From NCBI GenBank assembly GCA_045589295.1, contig JAZNOU010000002.1, forward strand, positions 17,283 to 81,282: a DNA stretch of 64,000 bases. The letters run 5' to 3'. Made by a program: the position numbers and the translations under genes. The notes below the pieces were generated by a model that was not told the origin of the DNA, did no database searches, and worked only from the letters and a program-made list of their open reading frames with translations. Positions 4,224 to 30,973 of the stretch are shown in pieces. Origin of the DNA: Clostridia bacterium (GTDB lineage Bacteria; Bacillota; Clostridia; RGIG6154). The number at the start of each line of letters is the position of its first letter. Position 1 is the stretch's first letter.

Positions 4224-6914
4224 TTATTTCGATACAACCAAAATCAACTTTGCAGCATTGTTTCTAATGAATGCAAATACCTGTGAAGCACCTGAACGGG
4301 AGCTTTCATAGCCTGCGATTGCATCAATTGTGCTTGTTGTAAGTCTTGCAGTTGAACTTTCTGAAACTGCAGTGTCAAGAATATAGAATTTTGTGTTTGT
4401 TGAAACTGTAATAGTTTTTGCATCTGCACTGTTAAGACTTCCGTCAGCGGCAACGTCATAAGGTGTGATGACAATCAATGAATCATCACGTGCGTAAACT
4501 GTGCCAAAAACAGATTCTCTTGAGTTAACAGAATCAGCAACCTTAACAAATCTGTTTGCTTTACCTTCGGCAAGCAAATTGTCAATATCAAATTCGGGAG
4601 CAACTTCTTTGATATAACCCTTAGAGTTCAGAGCTATTCTTAGAACATCACCTTTGCCGTAACCTGAGATGATGCTTGGGTCATCACAAGTATAAGTCTT
4701 AGTCGCACCATCAACGATTGCCGTAACAGTAGTAACAGGCGTGCCGGTTGAGCTGTCAACAGTTGCTCTGATTGATTCGATAAGGCCAACTGCAACAGAT
4801 GGATCGTTAATTCCAATAAGACCTGAATCACCATAAACAACTACGATATTTGGAACACCTGTTGTTGATGAATCATAAGCTTCAAAACTATATTTTGCCT
4901 GATTTTTAAGTTTTGAATATGTTCCTGTTGAATAGCTTGAGCTATCGCTTCTGTTGGTAGGAATAAACAATATCTTTGTTGATGTTGAAAGTGTAACACC
5001 AGAACCTAACTGCTTGCTGCTTGAAGTGTAAGTAATATCAGTCTGGTATGCTTTTGAAAGAACAAGAGATTTGTCAACATCACCCGAAGTTTTAATTGTA
5101 AAGATATTATCAATCTTTCCTGCTGAGTTTGTTGTGTATTCAATAAGTTGAGCAATTTGTGTATTTGTTGCACCAGCATCCTTGTTTGTAGCAGAATTTG
5201 CGGCAATAAGCGCATCTAGAACAGTGTCATAGCTATATGCGGTGCCGTTAATTTTAACTTTGCTAATACCCTGGAGAATAACTGTTTTATTGTCAGTTGT
5301 AAAGATTTTAAACTGAGGATATTCGTTTTTTTCAAGGGCATCTGCAGCTATTAAGTAACCATACTTTGTGGTAGCAGCAACACTTGTTACAGAAGCTGCA
5401 AGAATTTTATTGCTTTTATCCAGATAGAATGTAACTTTGTCACCTATTGTTATAGCTTCTGAAGGCATCTTTGTGAGATATGTACGGTAGGCATTTGAAT
5501 ATTCATAAGCTTTTCCTCCAACAATAACCAAACCGTCACTATGGTTCATTGATGTAACTGCACCTGAAGCGGTGTTTGTCACTATTTCAACGTTGTATGA
5601 TTGTTTTCCTGCAGGAGACATACTTCCTGAAACCAAAAGAACATCACCTTTTTTGATTTGTGAAAAATCAACTGTAGAGCCTGCTTTTGTTATATTAACA
5701 TCAATCTGGTTTGTTGCTTGATTAAGATTGAGAGACTGAGACTGATCGTATGCGTTGTAAACAATTTTTTTAGCAGTGTCAACAGCAGAAACAACGTAAA
5801 CTTCAGTTGAGTCGATGATAACAACATCATACAATCCGTTTCCGTTGTTGTCAATAAGAGTAATTGAACCTGAATCAGGTTTTAAACTTTGTGTGATGGA
5901 AGCAACGTACTTTCCATTATAAATACCGCTTACATTGCCTGTTTCGAAATTATAAGTTTCAAAATTATTTGTGTTATCAGGGTCAGGGTAATATTCAAGC
6001 TTGTCTGTGTAAAGCTCTTTTATGCGATCAGCTTCAACGGTAACCTGTGAGTTTTGCGATGAAAGTCTTGCAGAAACAAGAATATTGTTTACACCATCGT
6101 TTTTGTAGTAGTAGTTAATCTGCTTACCAAAATAATCTTTAGCAGATGTGGTGCCTACCTTCAATTTTTTGGTGTAATCAATCTGAATCTCATCTTCTTC
6201 AATGCCTGTTGCGCTTGATTTTAAAGCTTTTCCATATACACCTGTAACAATGCCTTTGCCTTCAGTGTATCTAAGCTTTTCAGAAAGAAGAGTGCGATTA
6301 CTTGCGATACCATCTTCTGAAGCAAGCGGAGTTTCCAATGAGTTTGCAATAAGCTGAGCAATTACCTCACGGCTTGCAGGCTCGCTATGTGCAGTTTCAG
6401 CATTGTTTAAAATGCCAAAACCTCTTGCAACTGTTAAGTAGCCTGTAGGCCATCCGCCTTGTTCGAGCGCTGAAGCTTCGTAACCTAAAGTACAAACAAT
6501 CATTTTAACTGCTTGTTCGTATGTAACTTTTTCTTTTGGTCTGAATGTTCCGTCCTCAAAACCTTTGATGATGCCGAGGTCATAAGCAATTTTTGTTGCT
6601 TTTATACTCCAGTCAGCGCAGGTTGAAGCGTTAACATCAGGGAATGGATATTCCGTAACTGATACATTAAGAGCGCCTAATCCCAACACACGTGTCATAA
6701 TAACACTGAATTCTTCACGGCTGATATTAGCCTGCGGTCTGAATGTGTCAGCACCGGCATCGCCTAAAATAATACCAAAATCGTTTAAAGTGTAGATTGC
6801 GTTTTTGTACTTGCTGCTTTCGGCAACATCGCTGAAAGTGGTGGTAGCAGCCATAACAGGGACGTAAGCCAGCACCAAGCTGAGGACAAGCACCATACAA
6901 ATTAATTTTTTCAT
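4224..6914 (-). CDS. S-layer-homology (SLH) domain cell-wall-anchored protein
   Basis: There is a signal peptide (MKKLICMVLVLSLVLAYVPVMA). N-terminal SLH repeats follow (FSDV...FRPQANISREEF; FPDV...GFEDGTFRPKEKVTYEQA), then a long Ser/Thr/Asn-rich beta-type region. Confidence 0.85.
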   Translation of the reverse strand: MKKLICMVLVLSLVLAYVPVMAATTTFSDVAESSKYKNAIYTLNDFGIILGDAGADTFRPQANISREEFSVIMTRVLGLGALNVSVTEYPFPDVNASTCADWSIKATKIAYDLGIIKGFEDGTFRPKEKVTYEQAVKMIVCTLGYEASALEQGGWPTGYLTVARGFGILNNAETAHSEPASREVIAQLIANSLETPLASEDGIASNRTLLSEKLRYTEGKGIVTGVYGKALKSSATGIEEDEIQIDYTKKLKVGTTSAKDYFGKQINYYYKNDGVNNILVSARLSSQNSQVTVEADRIKELYTDKLEYYPDPDNTNNFETYNFETGNVSGIYNGKYVASITQSLKPDSGSITLIDNNGNGLYDVVIIDSTEVYVVSAVDTAKKIVYNAYDQSQSLNLNQATNQIDVNITKAGSTVDFSQIKKGDVLLVSGSMSPAGKQSYNVEIVTNTASGAVTSMNHSDGLVIVGGKAYEYSNAYRTYLTKMPSEAITIGDKVTFYLDKSNKILAASVTSVAATTKYGYLIAADALEKNEYPQFKIFTTDNKTVILQGISKVKINGTAYSYDTVLDALIAANSATNKDAGATNTQIAQLIEYTTNSAGKIDNIFTIKTSGDVDKSLVLSKAYQTDITYTSSSKQLGSGVTLSTSTKILFIPTNRSDSSSYSTGTYSKLKNQAKYSFEAYDSSTTGVPNIVVVYGDSGLIGINDPSVAVGLIESIRATVDSSTGTPVTTVTAIVDGATKTYTCDDPSIISGYGKGDVLRIALNSKGYIKEVAPEFDIDNLLAEGKANRFVKVADSVNSRESVFGTVYARDDSLIVITPYDVAADGSLNSADAKTITVSTNTKFYILDTAVSESSTARLTTSTIDAIAGYESSRSGASQVFAFIRNNAAKLILVVSK

Positions 6915-7117: not shown

Positions 7118-8488
7118 ATGACATATAAAGAATATTTTGGTGGACTAACAGGCAAAAAAGTTTGTGTTATTGGTGCGGGTGTGAGTAATACTCCGCTTAT
7201 TAAAATGCTTATAAATAATGGAAGTATAGTTACTGTCTGCGATAAAAAGAATGACCTTGGGGAACTTGGCAAAGAACTTAAAAGCCTTGGGGCAAAGTTG
7301 ATTTTAGGGGAAAGCTATTTGGAAAATATTGATGCTGATGTAGTTTTCAGAAGCCCAGGAATAAGACCCGACCTTGTTCAGTTTGAGAAGGCAAAAGAGA
7401 TGGGTACGGTTATCACATCAGAAATGGAAGCATTTTTTGAGGTTTGTCCCTGCAAAATTATTGCAGTAACGGGAAGTGACGGCAAAACAACCACAACAAC
7501 CCTTATTTCAGAACTTTTGAAAGAAGAAGGCTTTAATGTTCATATCGGAGGAAATATCGGCAAACCGTTACTTCCAGAAATAGAAAATATAAAACAAGAC
7601 GATATTGCAGTTTTAGAACTTTCAAGTTTTCAACTTTTTACAATAAGAAAAAGTCCGTCAGTTGCGGTTATTACAAATCTTGAGCCAAACCACCTCAACT
7701 GGCATAAGGATTACAAAGAATATATTGATGCCAAAAAGAATATTATGCTCTTCCAAGGGGAAAATGATATTTTAGTAACAAATGCAAATAATAAGGACTC
7801 AGTAGATGTAGAAAAAGAGGCGAAAGGAATTTCAAGAACTTTTTCACGAAAGGTTAATTGTCTTTGTTGCTTAGAGGGAGAAAATATCGTTTACGGCGGT
7901 GAAAAAATTCTTAATATAAATGACATAAAACTTCCCGGACTTCACAACGTTGAAAATTATATGACTGCAATCTGTGCGGTGTATGATTTTGTAAGTAAAA
8001 AAACAATTGAAAAAGTAGCAAAAACTTTTGAGGGTGTTAAACACAGAATTGAGTTTGTAAGAGAGGTTGACGGGGCTAAATTTTATAACGATTCCATCGC
8101 GTCAAGTCCGTCAAGGGCTATTGCAGGGCTTAATTCATTTAATCAGAAGATTATAATGATTGCGGGCGGTCAGGATAAAAAAGTTCCGTATGATATTCTT
8201 GGTCCTGTTATTTGCAAAAGTGTAAAAACACTTGTGTTGCTTGGCAATGGAGCGTTAGATGCAGCAGCACCGCAGATAAGAAAAGCAGTTGAAAACTGTG
8301 AGGAATTCACAAATTGTGGAATAGAAATAAAGGAGACAACTTCATTGAAAGATGCTGTGCTTATGGCTAAAGAAAGTGCAAAATCGGGAGATGTGGTAAT
8401 GCTTTGCCCTGCGGCAACAAGCTTTGATATGTTCAAAAATTTTGAAGAGCGCGGAAATTTATTTAAGGATTTGGTGAATAAACTTTGA
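7118..8488 (+). CDS. murD: UDP-N-acetylmuramoylalanine--D-glutamate ligase
   Basis: Mur ligase motifs are present (VTGSDGKTTTT P-loop, NxxPNHLNWH). Length and N-terminal Rossmann GAGVSN fit. I prefer the ATG at 7118 with RBS GGGAGAG over the ORF-track start at 7058. Confidence 0.9.
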   Translation: MTYKEYFGGLTGKKVCVIGAGVSNTPLIKMLINNGSIVTVCDKKNDLGELGKELKSLGAKLILGESYLENIDADVVFRSPGIRPDLVQFEKAKEMGTVITSEMEAFFEVCPCKIIAVTGSDGKTTTTTLISELLKEEGFNVHIGGNIGKPLLPEIENIKQDDIAVLELSSFQLFTIRKSPSVAVITNLEPNHLNWHKDYKEYIDAKKNIMLFQGENDILVTNANNKDSVDVEKEAKGISRTFSRKVNCLCCLEGENIVYGGEKILNINDIKLPGLHNVENYMTAICAVYDFVSKKTIEKVAKTFEGVKHRIEFVREVDGAKFYNDSIASSPSRAIAGLNSFNQKIIMIAGGQDKKVPYDILGPVICKSVKTLVLLGNGALDAAAPQIRKAVENCEEFTNCGIEIKETTSLKDAVLMAKESAKSGDVVMLCPAATSFDMFKNFEERGNLFKDLVNKL

Positions 8489-13072: not shown

Positions 13073-13101
13073 TTGACAAACTAATGGTATTGTGATATTA
13101 T
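13073..13101 (+). promoter_or_regulatory. SigA-type promoter of tRNA-Asn
   Basis: TTGACA (13073-13078), 17-nt spacer, TATTAT (13096-13101). Confidence 0.6.
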
Positions 13102-13116
13102 AAGCCTTGTTAATAT

Positions 13117-13192
13117 TCCTCAATAGCTCAGTCGGTAGAGCATGCGGCTGTTAACCGCAGGGTCGTTGGTTCGAGTCCAACTTGGGGAGCCA
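13117..13192 (+). tRNA. tRNA-Asn (anticodon GUU)
   Basis: The cloverleaf was read by hand: acceptor TCCTCAA/TTGGGGA, anticodon arm TGCGG-CTGTTAA-CCGCA, T-arm GTTGG-TTCGAGT-CCAAC, with an encoded CCA. Confidence 0.9.
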
Positions 13193-13194
13193 AA

Positions 13195-13231
13195 GTCTAA
13201 ATGACACCGAAGGTGTTGTTTAGACTTTTTC
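13195..13231 (+). terminator. Rho-independent terminator after tRNA-Asn
   Basis: Stems GTCTAAA (13195-13201) / TTTAGAC (13219-13225) plus an inner ACACC/GGTGT, followed by TTTTT. Confidence 0.65.
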
Positions 13232-13232
13232 T

Positions 13233-13436
13233 TTTAGTTTGTGCACGAACCAACAATTCAATTGTAAACAGCCGCATATGCGGCGTTAACCAAAGGGGCT
13301 TGAGCACGACCGCCGCCAGTGGCGGAAGAAGGGAGTGTGAAAGCGGAAGCAAAAAGGAGAATTGCGAGCGAGAGCGTAGCAATGCGACTATTTTGTTGAC
13401 CGGACCGTTGGTTCGAGTCCAACTTGGGGAGCCAAA
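13233..13436 (+). ncRNA. tRNA-Asn-derived module: a degenerate anticodon-arm-like segment, a ~110-nt insert with a conserved core, and an exact 31-nt copy of the tRNA-Asn 3' end (T-arm, acceptor 3' strand, CCA)
   Basis: 13406-13436 is identical to 13164-13194. ATGCGGCGTTAACC (13279-13292) matches the tRNA anticodon arm ATGCGGCTGTTAACC apart from one deleted T. The conserved core is 13307-13335. The module is followed by its own terminator. No credible ORF is present. Confidence 0.4.
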
Positions 13437-13444
13437 ACAAAAAA

Positions 13445-13470
13445 GGGTGCAAAAGGCACCCTTTTTGTTT
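13445..13470 (+). terminator. Rho-independent terminator after the tRNA-Asn-derived module
   Basis: GGGTGC / GCACCC stem followed by TTTTTGTTTT. Confidence 0.65.
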
Positions 13471-13505
13471 TACTTTTTGTGTGGTGTATAAACCAACGAT
13501 ATGGA

Positions 13506-13550
13506 TTGACAATATCCTGTGAGTATTGTATTATTATAATCACAGGATAT
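13506..13550 (+). promoter_or_regulatory. Promoter with an embedded 11-bp perfect inverted repeat (candidate operator)
   Basis: TTGACA (13506-13511), 17-nt spacer, TATTAT (13529-13534). ATATCCTGTGA (13512-13522) and TCACAGGATAT (13540-13550) are exact reverse complements bracketing the -10. Confidence 0.55.
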
Positions 13551-15686: not shown

Positions 15687-15711
15687 ATATGTCTTTAAAT
15701 CAGCAATCAAT

Positions 15712-15740
15712 ATTATAACAAACAAAAATATATTTGTCAA
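15712..15740 (-). promoter_or_regulatory. SigA-type promoter of the tRNA-Met/Val operon
   Basis: On the minus strand: TTGACA (15740-15735), 17-nt spacer, TATAAT (15717-15712). Perfect consensus. Confidence 0.65.
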
Positions 15741-15759
15741 TACTTTTTTGCTAAAAAAT

Positions 15760-16533
15760 TTATTTATAATCTATTCTTAATTGAGAATTATTTTCAAAAG
15801 GGCTGACAATATGATTGTTTGTCAAGATACCGCTTCCTGCAAATGATAGCCATGAATGGTCGCTAACAATAATCGAGTCAAGCAAAAACTTTCTGACATT
15901 TAGAAGAGCCTCTAACAAAAGGCGAGTGTTTTCAACATCAAATGGTGAAGGATTTGTTTCGCCAGATGGGTGGTTGTGACCTAAAACAACGTAATAAGCT
16001 TTATATAAAACGGCGGATGCAACAATTTTTTCAACATAGATGCCTGTTGAGTCAACACCGCCTTCTGAAAGCATTTCATATTTGATAAGCTTTTTAGATT
16101 TGTCAAGATAGAGTGCATAGGCAGTTTCATATTTGCTGCCGAGGCAAAGTGACTGAAAAAACTCGGCGAGTTCATTTATACTTTCAAAGCTGTGTTTGGG
16201 AGTAAGATTGTTCAAAAGATAACGTTTGGTAACCGCTAGGTATGACGATAAGTGAAGTGCGGTAACCTTACCAATACCTTCTATTTGCATAAGTTCGTGA
16301 GGTGATGCCTCCAAAACTTTGTTTAATGAGCCAAATTTGTTTATAAGGCTGTGAGCGATTGGGTTGGTGTCAACCTGAGGTATGCTCTGAAATAAAATAA
16401 ATTCCAAAAGCTGATGGTCGAGCAAAGAGTCAAACGAAGTATTTGACAAAAGTTTATCACGCACGCGGGTTCTGTGACCAACGTGAACATTTGATTTTGT
16501 TAGCTTGTTGTTTTTTGTACTCAAACCTCTCAC
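15760..16533 (-). CDS. radC: RadC-family JAB/MPN-domain protein
   Basis: Helix-hairpin-helix ELMQIEGIGKVTALHL is present, with the C-terminal JAMM motif VVLGHNHPSGETNPSPFD. The start codon is uncertain (GTG at 16533 or in-frame TTG at 16524). Confidence 0.8.
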   Translation of the reverse strand: MRGLSTKNNKLTKSNVHVGHRTRVRDKLLSNTSFDSLLDHQLLEFILFQSIPQVDTNPIAHSLINKFGSLNKVLEASPHELMQIEGIGKVTALHLSSYLAVTKRYLLNNLTPKHSFESINELAEFFQSLCLGSKYETAYALYLDKSKKLIKYEMLSEGGVDSTGIYVEKIVASAVLYKAYYVVLGHNHPSGETNPSPFDVENTRLLLEALLNVRKFLLDSIIVSDHSWLSFAGSGILTNNHIVSPFENNSQLRIDYK

Positions 16534-20015: not shown

Positions 20016-20044
20016 TTGATTTTTTTTATGTTATAGTGTATACT
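20016..20044 (+). promoter_or_regulatory. SigA-type promoter driving the tRNA-Glu-like module plus tRNA-Glu
   Basis: TTGATT (20016-20021), 17-nt spacer, TATACT (20039-20044). Confidence 0.5.
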
Positions 20045-20097
20045 GAATGACGTAGAATTTGCGTGTTTAAATTCATATCAATTATGCATCATTCGTT

Positions 20098-20290
20098 ATA
20101 AGGCTCTATCGTCTAATGGTTAGGACTTTGGCCCCAAAAGGCTGGAATAGGGGTGTCCGCGTAGCGACCGCTGCCTGTGGCAGAAAAAGGGAGCACGCAA
20201 GGACTGTGCAGTAACACAATGAATTGAGCCAAAGTTTGGCGAAAATGAATTGATGTTACAAACGGGTAGAATTCTGGATTCGAACCCATA
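20098..20290 (+). ncRNA. tRNA-Glu-derived module: an exact copy of the tRNA-Glu 5' part with an altered anticodon arm, a ~124-nt insert inside the T-loop, and no acceptor 3' strand
   Basis: 20098-20126 is identical to 20302-20330 (acceptor 5' strand and D-arm). 20138-20154 is identical to 20342-20358 (anticodon 3' stem, variable loop, T-stem 5' strand). The insert is 20155-20278, followed by a TTCGAACCC remnant at 20279-20287. The conserved core is 20165-20193. Confidence 0.4.
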
Positions 20291-20305
20291 AAAAATTAAA
20301 TATAA

Positions 20306-20380
20306 GGCTCTATCGTCTAATGGTTAGGACACAGCCCTCTCAAGGCTGGAATAGGGGTTCGAATCCCCTTAGAGTCACCA
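20306..20380 (+). tRNA. tRNA-Glu (anticodon CUC)
   Basis: Acceptor GGCTCTA/TAGAGTC, anticodon arm CAGCC-CTCTCAA-GGCTG, T-arm AGGGG-TTCGAAT-CCCCT, and CCA. Overall it resembles Bacillus tRNA-Glu. Confidence 0.85.
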
Positions 20381-20414
20381 AAAAAACAGATGCCAAACGG
20401 CATCTGTTTTTTTG
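20381..20414 (+). terminator. Rho-independent terminator after tRNA-Glu
   Basis: ACAGATGCC / GGCATCTGT stem followed by TTTTTTT. Confidence 0.75.
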
Positions 20415-22293: not shown

Positions 22294-22326
22294 AAAAAAC
22301 AGATGCCCAAAAGCATCTGTTTTTTT
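22294..22326. terminator. Bidirectional hairpin terminator
   Basis: ACAGATGC (22299-22306) / GCATCTGT (22313-22320) flanked by an A-run and a T-run, between converging genes. Confidence 0.7.
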
Positions 22327-30849: not shown

Positions 30850-30909
30850 TTTTAAACAACTTGAAAAATGCACCTTTTAACTTGCGCTTTTTTTCAAATC
30901 GCAAGATAT

Positions 30910-30938
30910 ATTGTAATACATTATGATGAGTTTGTCAA
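30910..30938 (-). promoter_or_regulatory. SigA-type promoter of the tRNA-Thr/Tyr operon
   Basis: On the minus strand: TTGACA (30938-30933), 17-nt spacer, TACAAT (30915-30910). Confidence 0.6.
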
Positions 30939-30973
30939 TACTTTTTTTTAAAAAAAGTTATATTTTTTTGTAA

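Follow-up and report, generated by a model that had tools for sequence, protein, structure and literature searches.

A previously uncatalogued structured RNA domain nested in tRNA-derived hairpins in gut Clostridia

The stretch of DNA described here, called the window, comprises 64,000 nucleotides (nt) from the genome of a Clostridia bacterium (lineage RGIG6154; assembly GCA_045589295.1, contig JAZNOU010000002.1, positions 17,283 to 81,282 of the forward strand). On its + strand, an intact gene for tRNA-Asn (GTT) at 13117–13192, identified by ARAGORN and by the tRNA model of Rfam (68.7 bits), is followed by a terminator-like hairpin (13192–13228), a non-coding module and another terminator-like hairpin (13440–13466), each hairpin having a T run after it. 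The module contains a structured domain of about 110 nt, named R1 in this report, which also occurs in a module next to tRNA-Glu in the same window. R1 is a previously uncatalogued structured RNA domain that is common in gut Clostridia, and it is a discrete unit embedded in a small tRNA-associated element. The feature represents a new family of structured RNAs, set within unusual hairpins that derive from tRNAs, and from its anatomy we infer how the RNA may function and spread.

The two R1 copies of the window lie at 13295–13402 and 20151–20265, both on the + strand. They share the core CGACCGCYGCCWGTGGCRGAARAAGGGAG (13307–13335 and 20165–20193), which has no other match in the window with up to three mismatches and is matched in none of 100 shuffles; an earlier note on this DNA had recognized such a core as common to the tRNA-Asn and tRNA-Glu loci, and it is found at these two sites only. 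Around the core, both copies adopt a like fold with compensatory differences. The first copy is composed of helix P1, a tandem G·A step, a CC/GG step, the hairpin P2 (CCGCC-AGU-GGCGG) and helices P3 and P3b, and both copies are counted in the family because they match the covariance model over its whole length, P1, P2, P3 and P3b included. Across the 64 kb, this model detects exactly two copies, 20151–20265 with 62.5 bits (E 1e-13) and 13295–13402 with 61.3 bits (E 2e-13), scores that are partly given by construction because both copies are in the 67-sequence seed, the one at tRNA-Asn via a near-identical contig (L020); the next-best match reaches 11.9 bits.

Further copies were collected by scanning species-representative genomes with a fixed pattern of 25 nt, which gave at least 120 loci. 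Fetched loci that carry R1-type elements are labelled with L-numbers (L020, L054 and so on), and the counts below are those among the matches listed. In the fetched loci, about 150 copies of R1 are found by the covariance model, tandem arrays among them. An alignment of 67 diverse copies, A4, supports P1, the CC/GG step, P2, P3, P3b and one extra pair. Paired cells make up 83.8% in A4 versus 65.9% in shuffles, the covariation score is 0.455 versus 0.164 in shuffles, of which 0 of 500 reach 0.455, and slid controls do not exceed 0.137. Both sides of the pair change in 23 of 29 pairs, as compared to about 20 in shuffles and 13–19 in the slid controls. As evidence of conservation, the helices and the invariant positions flanking the pattern were used, and the stretch fixed by the pattern was not counted. 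R1 is taken as a real conserved structure because its covariation and its pairing exceed those of the controls, with the model matches as further support. The invariant internal loops, which include the tandem G·A steps, suggest a fold that may bind a protein or a ligand. A single long-range covarying pair was also seen between columns 54 and 123 of A4 (G-C 29, C-G 20, U-A 4), and it hints at a tertiary contact or pseudoknot between the junction after P1 and the 3' tail.

The loci found with the pattern belong nearly all to the Oscillospirales, with Faecalibacterium, Ruminococcus flavefaciens, R. bromii, Acutalibacteraceae, Oscillospiraceae, Lawsonibacter and Gemmiger among them. High-scoring copies of the Faecalibacterium type were also observed in bins assigned to unrelated phyla (L061; L101, an Oxalobacter metagenome-assembled genome (MAG); and L051, L091 and L102, Bacteroidales MAGs), for which contamination is likelier than true spread. 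By blastn, the core is present in six contigs from human faeces deposited as 'UNVERIFIED Bacteriophage sp.', which are likely bacterial DNA and were treated as such. The strict core pattern has no match in viral contigs, and the 13 matches of a relaxed pattern in them, none of which has the hairpin, were set aside as noise. Searched by blastn, plasmids gave matches to the tRNA ends only.

No family of Rfam 15, which includes riboswitches, ribozymes, group I and II introns, raiA, ROOL, GOLLD and HEARO, matches R1 in the window at the gathering threshold, and no relevant match appears in the module region at E ≤ 10; likewise, six related loci gave none at E ≤ 0.1 and the two best-scoring members none at E ≤ 10, and no description of the R1 family was found in the literature. 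R1 resembles the raiA/ModT, ROOL, GOLLD and OLE RNAs, which are widespread in bacteria and whose functions are recent findings or still to be found, in its covarying helices, its invariant internal loops, the lack of a single neighbouring gene family and its restriction to a lineage. ROOL and GOLLD often adjoin tRNA genes. Unlike these RNAs, R1 has no match in Rfam 15, is much smaller at about 110 nt, occurs in multiple and tandem copies and has tRNA-derived flanks. It would add a widespread structured RNA family to dominant Clostridia of the human gut and the rumen (Faecalibacterium, Ruminococcus), which are poorly charted for such RNAs. Several other classes were considered and rejected: a riboswitch or cis-regulatory leader, as the downstream genes are unrelated (DHDPS, MnmE, LRR_5, patatin, ABC permeases, FdhD); a small open reading frame (ORF) or tmRNA-like tag, as there is no conserved ORF and ARAGORN finds no tmRNA; and a minihelix or tRNA mimic, as there is no 5' acceptor strand.

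At the tRNA-Asn locus, a promoter-like site (TTGACA, 17 nt, TATTAT) is located upstream of the gene at 13073–13101 on the + strand. An exact direct repeat of 31 nt, CGTTGGTTCGAGTCCAACTTGGGGAGCCAAA, is present at 13164–13194 and 13406–13436, for which arithmetic gives about 4e-10 such pairs expected by chance in 64 kb. The first copy lies inside the real tRNA and runs from the boundary of variable region and T arm through the T arm, the acceptor 3' strand and CCA to AA, and the second, 3 nt past R1 on the + strand, is a displaced or duplicated 3' end of tRNA-Asn. On the left side of R1, an inverted copy of tRNA-Asn positions 26–64 occupies 13239–13277 (39 nt, 72% complementary to 13142–13180, with a score of 24 versus a shuffle maximum of 20). 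It is followed on the + strand by a mutated direct copy of positions 26–46, from the anticodon arm to the variable loop with its GGG end, at 13278–13297, where the anticodon-arm-like ATGCGGCGTTAACC is read at 13278–13291. The turn where the inverted copy meets the direct one is the perfect palindrome CCGCATATGCGG (13272–13283), and family members also have a hairpin just 5' of R1 at the palindrome's place. R1 splits a 5'-truncated copy of tRNA-Asn between positions 46 and 48. In the window, the inverted copy to its left carries this tRNA segment without interruption and spans the break of the direct copy, and to its right lie the 31-nt copy of the 3' end and then the terminator. The tRNA gene with its terminator, the exact 3'-end repeat, the palindrome with the anticodon-arm-like stretch and the second terminator (placed at 13445–13470, and corresponding to the hairpin at 13440–13466) had all been described correctly in the earlier note, which overlooked the inverted copy. 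The ORFs that flank the module encode an RNase H, a PHP domain protein and a Met gamma-lyase.

Both ends of the module can be folded into extended hairpins. In the first, S1 (13160–13262), the 3' part of the tRNA forms a stem with the sequence just past the intrinsic terminator, which itself (13192–13228) makes up the tip; the fold is a single hairpin of about 100 nt with −45.1 kcal/mol and a z score of −7.4. The second, S2 (13402–13505), contains the second copy of the tRNA 3' end, the terminator at 13440–13466 and an antisense piece, AACCAACGA, at 13491–13499, with a z score of −3.4. S2 aligns with S1 at 77%, and the terminator stems differ. These folds bear on the proposal that the module is a tRNA-like RNA, which by its genuine T arm and CCA end would be processed, repaired at its CCA or aminoacylated. 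The window does have an exact copy of the T arm, the acceptor 3' strand and CCA, and the segment does hold a conserved structured RNA, but there is no cloverleaf. As had been noted before, an acceptor 5' strand is missing: none is found in 13193–13470, where ARAGORN calls no tRNA or tmRNA and Rfam yields no tRNA or tmRNA match, its tRNA model giving nothing at E ≤ 10. The predicted fold also pairs the T-arm bases with the antisense piece. Many of the copies in relatives have their first base within the T loop (L035, L126, L099, L067, L045), so that a T arm cannot form, the copies decay (L072, L043, L117) while the core is kept, and modules upstream of tRNAs carry the 5' part instead. A tRNA-like role is thus extremely unlikely.

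The second module of the window, at 20097–20300, is located upstream of its tRNA gene and mirrors the first. Its left flank (20097–20154, + strand) is a direct copy of five leader bases and of tRNA-Glu positions 1–53 with an altered anticodon loop, 88% identical to 20301–20358. The R1 copy is followed by an inverted copy of the tRNA-Glu T arm, GGATTCGAACCCATA, at 20276–20290 on the + strand (93% complementary to 20352–20366), and the intact tRNA-Glu (CTC) gene lies directly downstream at 20306–20380 on the + strand. Neither the copy of the 5' part nor the inverted T-arm piece had been noticed before. The only nearby + strand promoter-like site for tRNA-Glu, 20016–20044, is upstream of the module. 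At the tRNA-Ser(GCU) gene of the window there is neither a module nor an antisense piece, and five other species have a module there.

Of 132 pattern copies across genomes, 36 have a tRNA gene at a distance of at most 400 nt, and in all 36 of them R1 is on the same strand as the tRNA. The tRNA is upstream of R1 in 25 cases, in which R1 starts 68–358 nt past the tRNA (mostly 68–161 nt), and downstream in 11. Twelve isotypes are linked: Asn, Glu, Pro, Ser, Met, Lys, Thr, Leu, Ala, Trp, Tyr and His. The tRNA-linked copies sit inside a partial duplicate of the neighbouring tRNA, and downstream modules have a recurrent order: the tRNA and its terminator are followed by an inverted piece of the tRNA, often together with a short direct piece that folds into a hairpin with it, then by R1, the directly copied 3' end and a second terminator. 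In 18 of 20 downstream modules, R1 has behind it the 3' end of the local tRNA, copied directly through CCA, and the inverted copy before R1 is significant against shuffles in 16 of 20. Of the last 30 bases of the tRNA, a median of 21 pair with the region after the terminator in the 20 module-bearing tRNAs versus 3.5 in 12 controls. Upstream modules are ordered as leader with tRNA 5' part, R1, a short continuation or inverted piece, and the intact tRNA, the 5' part reaching position 20–23 in Pro, 28–33 in Thr and 53 in Glu. Arrangements at tRNA-Asn like that of the window exist in other species (L054, L069), and the tRNA pieces track the sequence of the local tRNA, since the fragment in L069 follows the different acceptor stem of its own genome. 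Direct repeats of at least 12 nt flank 37 of 119 copies, as against 4 of 119 in shuffles. As a separate observation, tRNA-Pro genes have R1 modules on both sides (L095:5220–5671 and L073:1672–2141).

Duplicated tRNA ends are routinely taken as scars of integrases. Fragments of tRNA genes usually derive from integrated elements (10.1101/2022.07.05.498093). In one of the two readings of the earlier note, the module is the scar of an integrase island; in such an account, a tyrosine integrase encoded elsewhere would insert a small circle with a tRNA-homologous attachment site, attP, by which the tRNA would be regenerated, and the displaced 3' end would be attR. A tRNA 3' end that is directly repeated up to and including CCA is the classic attachment (att) signature, and, as at the tRNA att sites of islands and prophages, an intact tRNA stands on one side and a fragment on the other. 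Moreover, the layout of one unit between two S hairpins is that expected from a single crossover of a small circle, and repeats often start in or near the T loop or anticodon loop. What remains of the suspicion is a true duplication of the 3' end that flanks a small inserted element; the approximately 210 nt between the repeats are not joined or unrelated leftover island ends but hold the conserved, covarying R1, which recurs in many species beside tRNAs of 12 isotypes, each time with flanks like the tRNA of that locus, as one integrase with one attP cannot achieve. In addition, upstream modules duplicate the 5' part plus the leader, and the inverted tRNA copies and extended hairpins are unexpected from att recombination. 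No recurrent integrase, reverse transcriptase, transposase or other protein was found within 3 kb of about 130 copies, the top clusters of neighbouring proteins being a spurious high-GC ORF and ABC ATPases. No recombinase gene is present in or beside the tRNA-Asn module, in which the repeats are too close together to enclose a gene; this search was confined to the neighbourhood of the module and did not extend to the genome as a whole. A miniature integrative element or att scar is therefore unlikely, and the two readings of the earlier note each prove right in part and wrong in part. R1 modules would represent a second origin of tRNA fragments, around a tiny unit without protein and with inverted copies by which the tRNA terminator grows into a hairpin of about 100 nt, which bears on the mapping of genomic islands by such fragments.

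The points at which R1 interrupts the tRNA copies are loops or their edges: the D loop (Pro), the anticodon loop (Thr, Pro-UGG) and the variable or T loop (Asn, Ser, Trp, Glu). Together with the inverted copy, which in every case runs unbroken over the site where R1 breaks the direct one and is in this respect guide-like, this recalls a self-propagating RNA, that is, an R1 ribozyme or guide-bearing RNA that would enter tRNA loops at the RNA level by reverse splicing, followed by reverse transcription and recombination, or a self-cleaving RNA that would cut tandem transcripts. The tandem arrays, the invariant internal loops and the absence of an associated protein gene are also in line with it. 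Any catalysis by R1 is putative. It has no likeness to the ribozyme or intron families of Rfam and, at 110 nt, is far below the size of group I or II introns, and the duplicated 5' flanks include unprocessed leader (49 nt in L073), which points to events at the DNA level. Such an RNA is considered quite improbable. The same holds for the proposal that R1 and the antisense tRNA piece form a mobile element which, guided or catalysed by RNA and independent of proteins, homes to tRNA genes; there, the inverted copy would guide it to the T-arm or anticodon region, R1 would be catalytic or recruiting and the tRNA duplications would be the footprints of insertion, a scenario that we regard as very doubtful.

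That R1 is a discrete insertable unit follows from sister elements of like build that exactly lack it. Elements with and without R1 share a common scaffold, in which R1 is an exact block of about 113 nt between CACTGG and GGCTAC, and the array in L088 contains pseudo-tRNA-Thr copies with R1 in place of the anticodon beside a copy without R1. Four control tRNAs with a significant inverted piece turned out to adjoin R1-less elements of this kind (L059 at tRNA-Ser-GGA, L080, L122) or a bare palindrome (L074). Such a presence or absence of R1 in otherwise identical elements offers a testable case of a folded RNA domain that moves between loci. The identity of the tRNA pieces to the local tRNA ranges from 31/31 in the window to barely detectable (L043, L117, L122) with R1 conserved throughout, and these pieces would be by-products. 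Away from tRNA genes, R1 units with terminators of their own behind them are tandemly duplicated.

Some details of these elements were recorded besides. The R1-less ones, which are linked to tRNAs and in part tandem (L059:20–384, - strand; L080, downstream of tRNA-Ser 4979–5071; L122:5058–5300), are laid out as terminator, inverted T-arm piece, hairpins, direct tRNA 3' piece and terminator, and several have in common the motif GGGAYTYGAA-N3-4-TAAAAT after the inverted piece. In L074, the 3' end of tRNA-His (7861–7937, - strand), its terminator and a near-complete inverted copy of the 3' end form a palindrome with arms of about 50 base pairs (bp) and no inserted unit, which may represent the extended hairpin in a 'bare' state. 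In L027:255–700 and in L085, a 574-nt contig of Ruminococcus bromii ATCC 27255, two to four R1 units stand in tandem; the short R. bromii contig looks like a repeat that has been collapsed, a hint that this genome has many copies.

These properties recall the small non-autonomous repeats of bacteria (REP/BIME, ERIC, Correia, RUP, bcr1, PATE and miniature inverted-repeat transposable elements (MITEs)), which are likewise short, protein-less, multi-copy, intergenic and rich in hairpins, and of which some are cotranscribed and processed. R1 could be a repeat of the DNA, such as a MITE-, REP- or PATE-like palindrome mobilized by a transposase in trans, with the RNA fold as a side effect of DNA hairpins. 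The copies are multiple, intergenic and often tandem (L027 with four units, L085, L088, L121, L129, L055), long hairpins bracket the unit, flanking direct repeats are as frequent as given above, and cells with G-U and A-C are equally common in the alignment (42 versus 41). However, the copies are old and diverged, their helices differing widely by compensatory changes while unpaired nucleotides are fixed, unlike recently spread MITEs. The unit has neither terminal inverted repeats nor a constant short target duplication; a MITE proper was rejected, as the ends of R1 are not mutual inverted repeats and its flanking repeats are local copies of 12–67 nt or tandem units. The strict orientation relative to tRNAs, with same-strand terminators following, and the 125 G·A/A·G cells versus 22 C·T/T·C cells, which fit sheared pairs on the tRNA-sense strand, also speak against a DNA repeat, which is an improbable account of the family.

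The explanation that we favour, and hold to be probable on balance, is that the R1 RNA is under selection, is carried in a tRNA-associated element that is installed without a dedicated integrase, and is made together with the tRNA precursor. We infer that duplication of one block, made up of the tRNA 3' part, the terminator and the antisense piece, placed a copy of it to the left and to the right of the inserted unit, because the S1 and S2 hairpins align and the module-bearing tRNAs pair with the region after the terminator; the 31-nt repeat would be the best-preserved part of this block and thus a by-product of the installation of the element. The antisense piece would have arisen by template switching during replication at the quasi-palindrome of the terminator, by which the stem was extended into the tRNA 3' end. 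The whole block would have been duplicated around the unit, likeliest by template switching or by homology-driven recombination between tRNA-homologous sequences at a highly transcribed tRNA gene, with no dedicated integrase. R1 would be made within the tRNA precursor, by read-through of the first terminator at tRNA-Asn and as part of the 5' leader at tRNA-Glu, and trimmed by nucleases that process tRNAs and duplexes. The selected part would be R1 itself, as a stable fold that may bind a protein or ligand through its invariant internal loops.

Some RNAs are known to reside in tRNA precursors or to resemble tRNAs, such as the 3' external transcribed spacer of E. coli leuZ and the Y-RNA-like YrlA with its tRNA-like module. 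Like them, R1 has a transcription unit or sequence features in common with tRNAs. Unlike them, it is a large conserved fold and no short spacer, and its flanks are partial, decaying copies and not a maintained tRNA mimic. Template switching is known to create reverse-complement repeats and hairpins (PMC8794818), and the products at quasi-palindromes resemble the modules in having a reverse-complement copy of the sequence before the hairpin just downstream of it, and a longer stem. Unlike those products, the modules are recurrent at many tRNA genes with a specific inserted unit, and the whole extended hairpin is duplicated.

Several points weigh against a selected RNA that is made with the tRNA precursor and installed without a dedicated integrase. 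Most copies were collected with the fixed 25-nt pattern, which partly imposes the invariance of that stretch, and the equal numbers of G-U and A-C cells mean that wobble pairs do not fix the strand that is folded. Approximately three quarters of the R1 copies are not beside tRNAs, and a closing helix between the flanks is not family-wide (mean z −0.17). At the tRNA-Asn locus, a strong terminator with a 17-bp stem separates the tRNA from the module, and no + strand promoter-like site is present between this terminator and the module or inside the module; therefore, transcription of the module would need read-through. Expression of R1 within tRNA precursors is a prediction, and the route of installation is a reconstruction from its end products. 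A recombinase that is encoded elsewhere may act in trans. Finally, among the relatives of the RNase H and PHP genes no pair of filled and empty sites was found for the tRNA-Asn locus: the look-up of the RNase H gave only same-species contigs, and a metagenome scan for the PHP gene gave one 99% relative and otherwise non-syntenic homologues. The contigs found with the same module (L020, L144) are of the same species, whereas the remaining PHP homologues reach no more than 37% identity and lack a tRNA-Asn in their vicinity.

A few other similarities were observed in the window. The promoter-like regions of tRNA-Asn (13087–13103) and of the PHP gene (13523–13539) have GTATTGTRWTATTATAA in common, with 88% identity over 17 nt, in addition to TTGACA, which could be a chance likeness of strong promoters or a piece of the duplicated block. 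The terminator hairpin after tRNA-Glu (20381–20413) is 91% identical over 33 nt to a hairpin at 22294–22326. Lastly, two regions of 70 nt, 15694–15763 and 30892–30961, are 70% alike, contain TTGTCAATACTTTTTT and lie upstream of tRNA operons on the - strand (Met-Val and Thr-Tyr).

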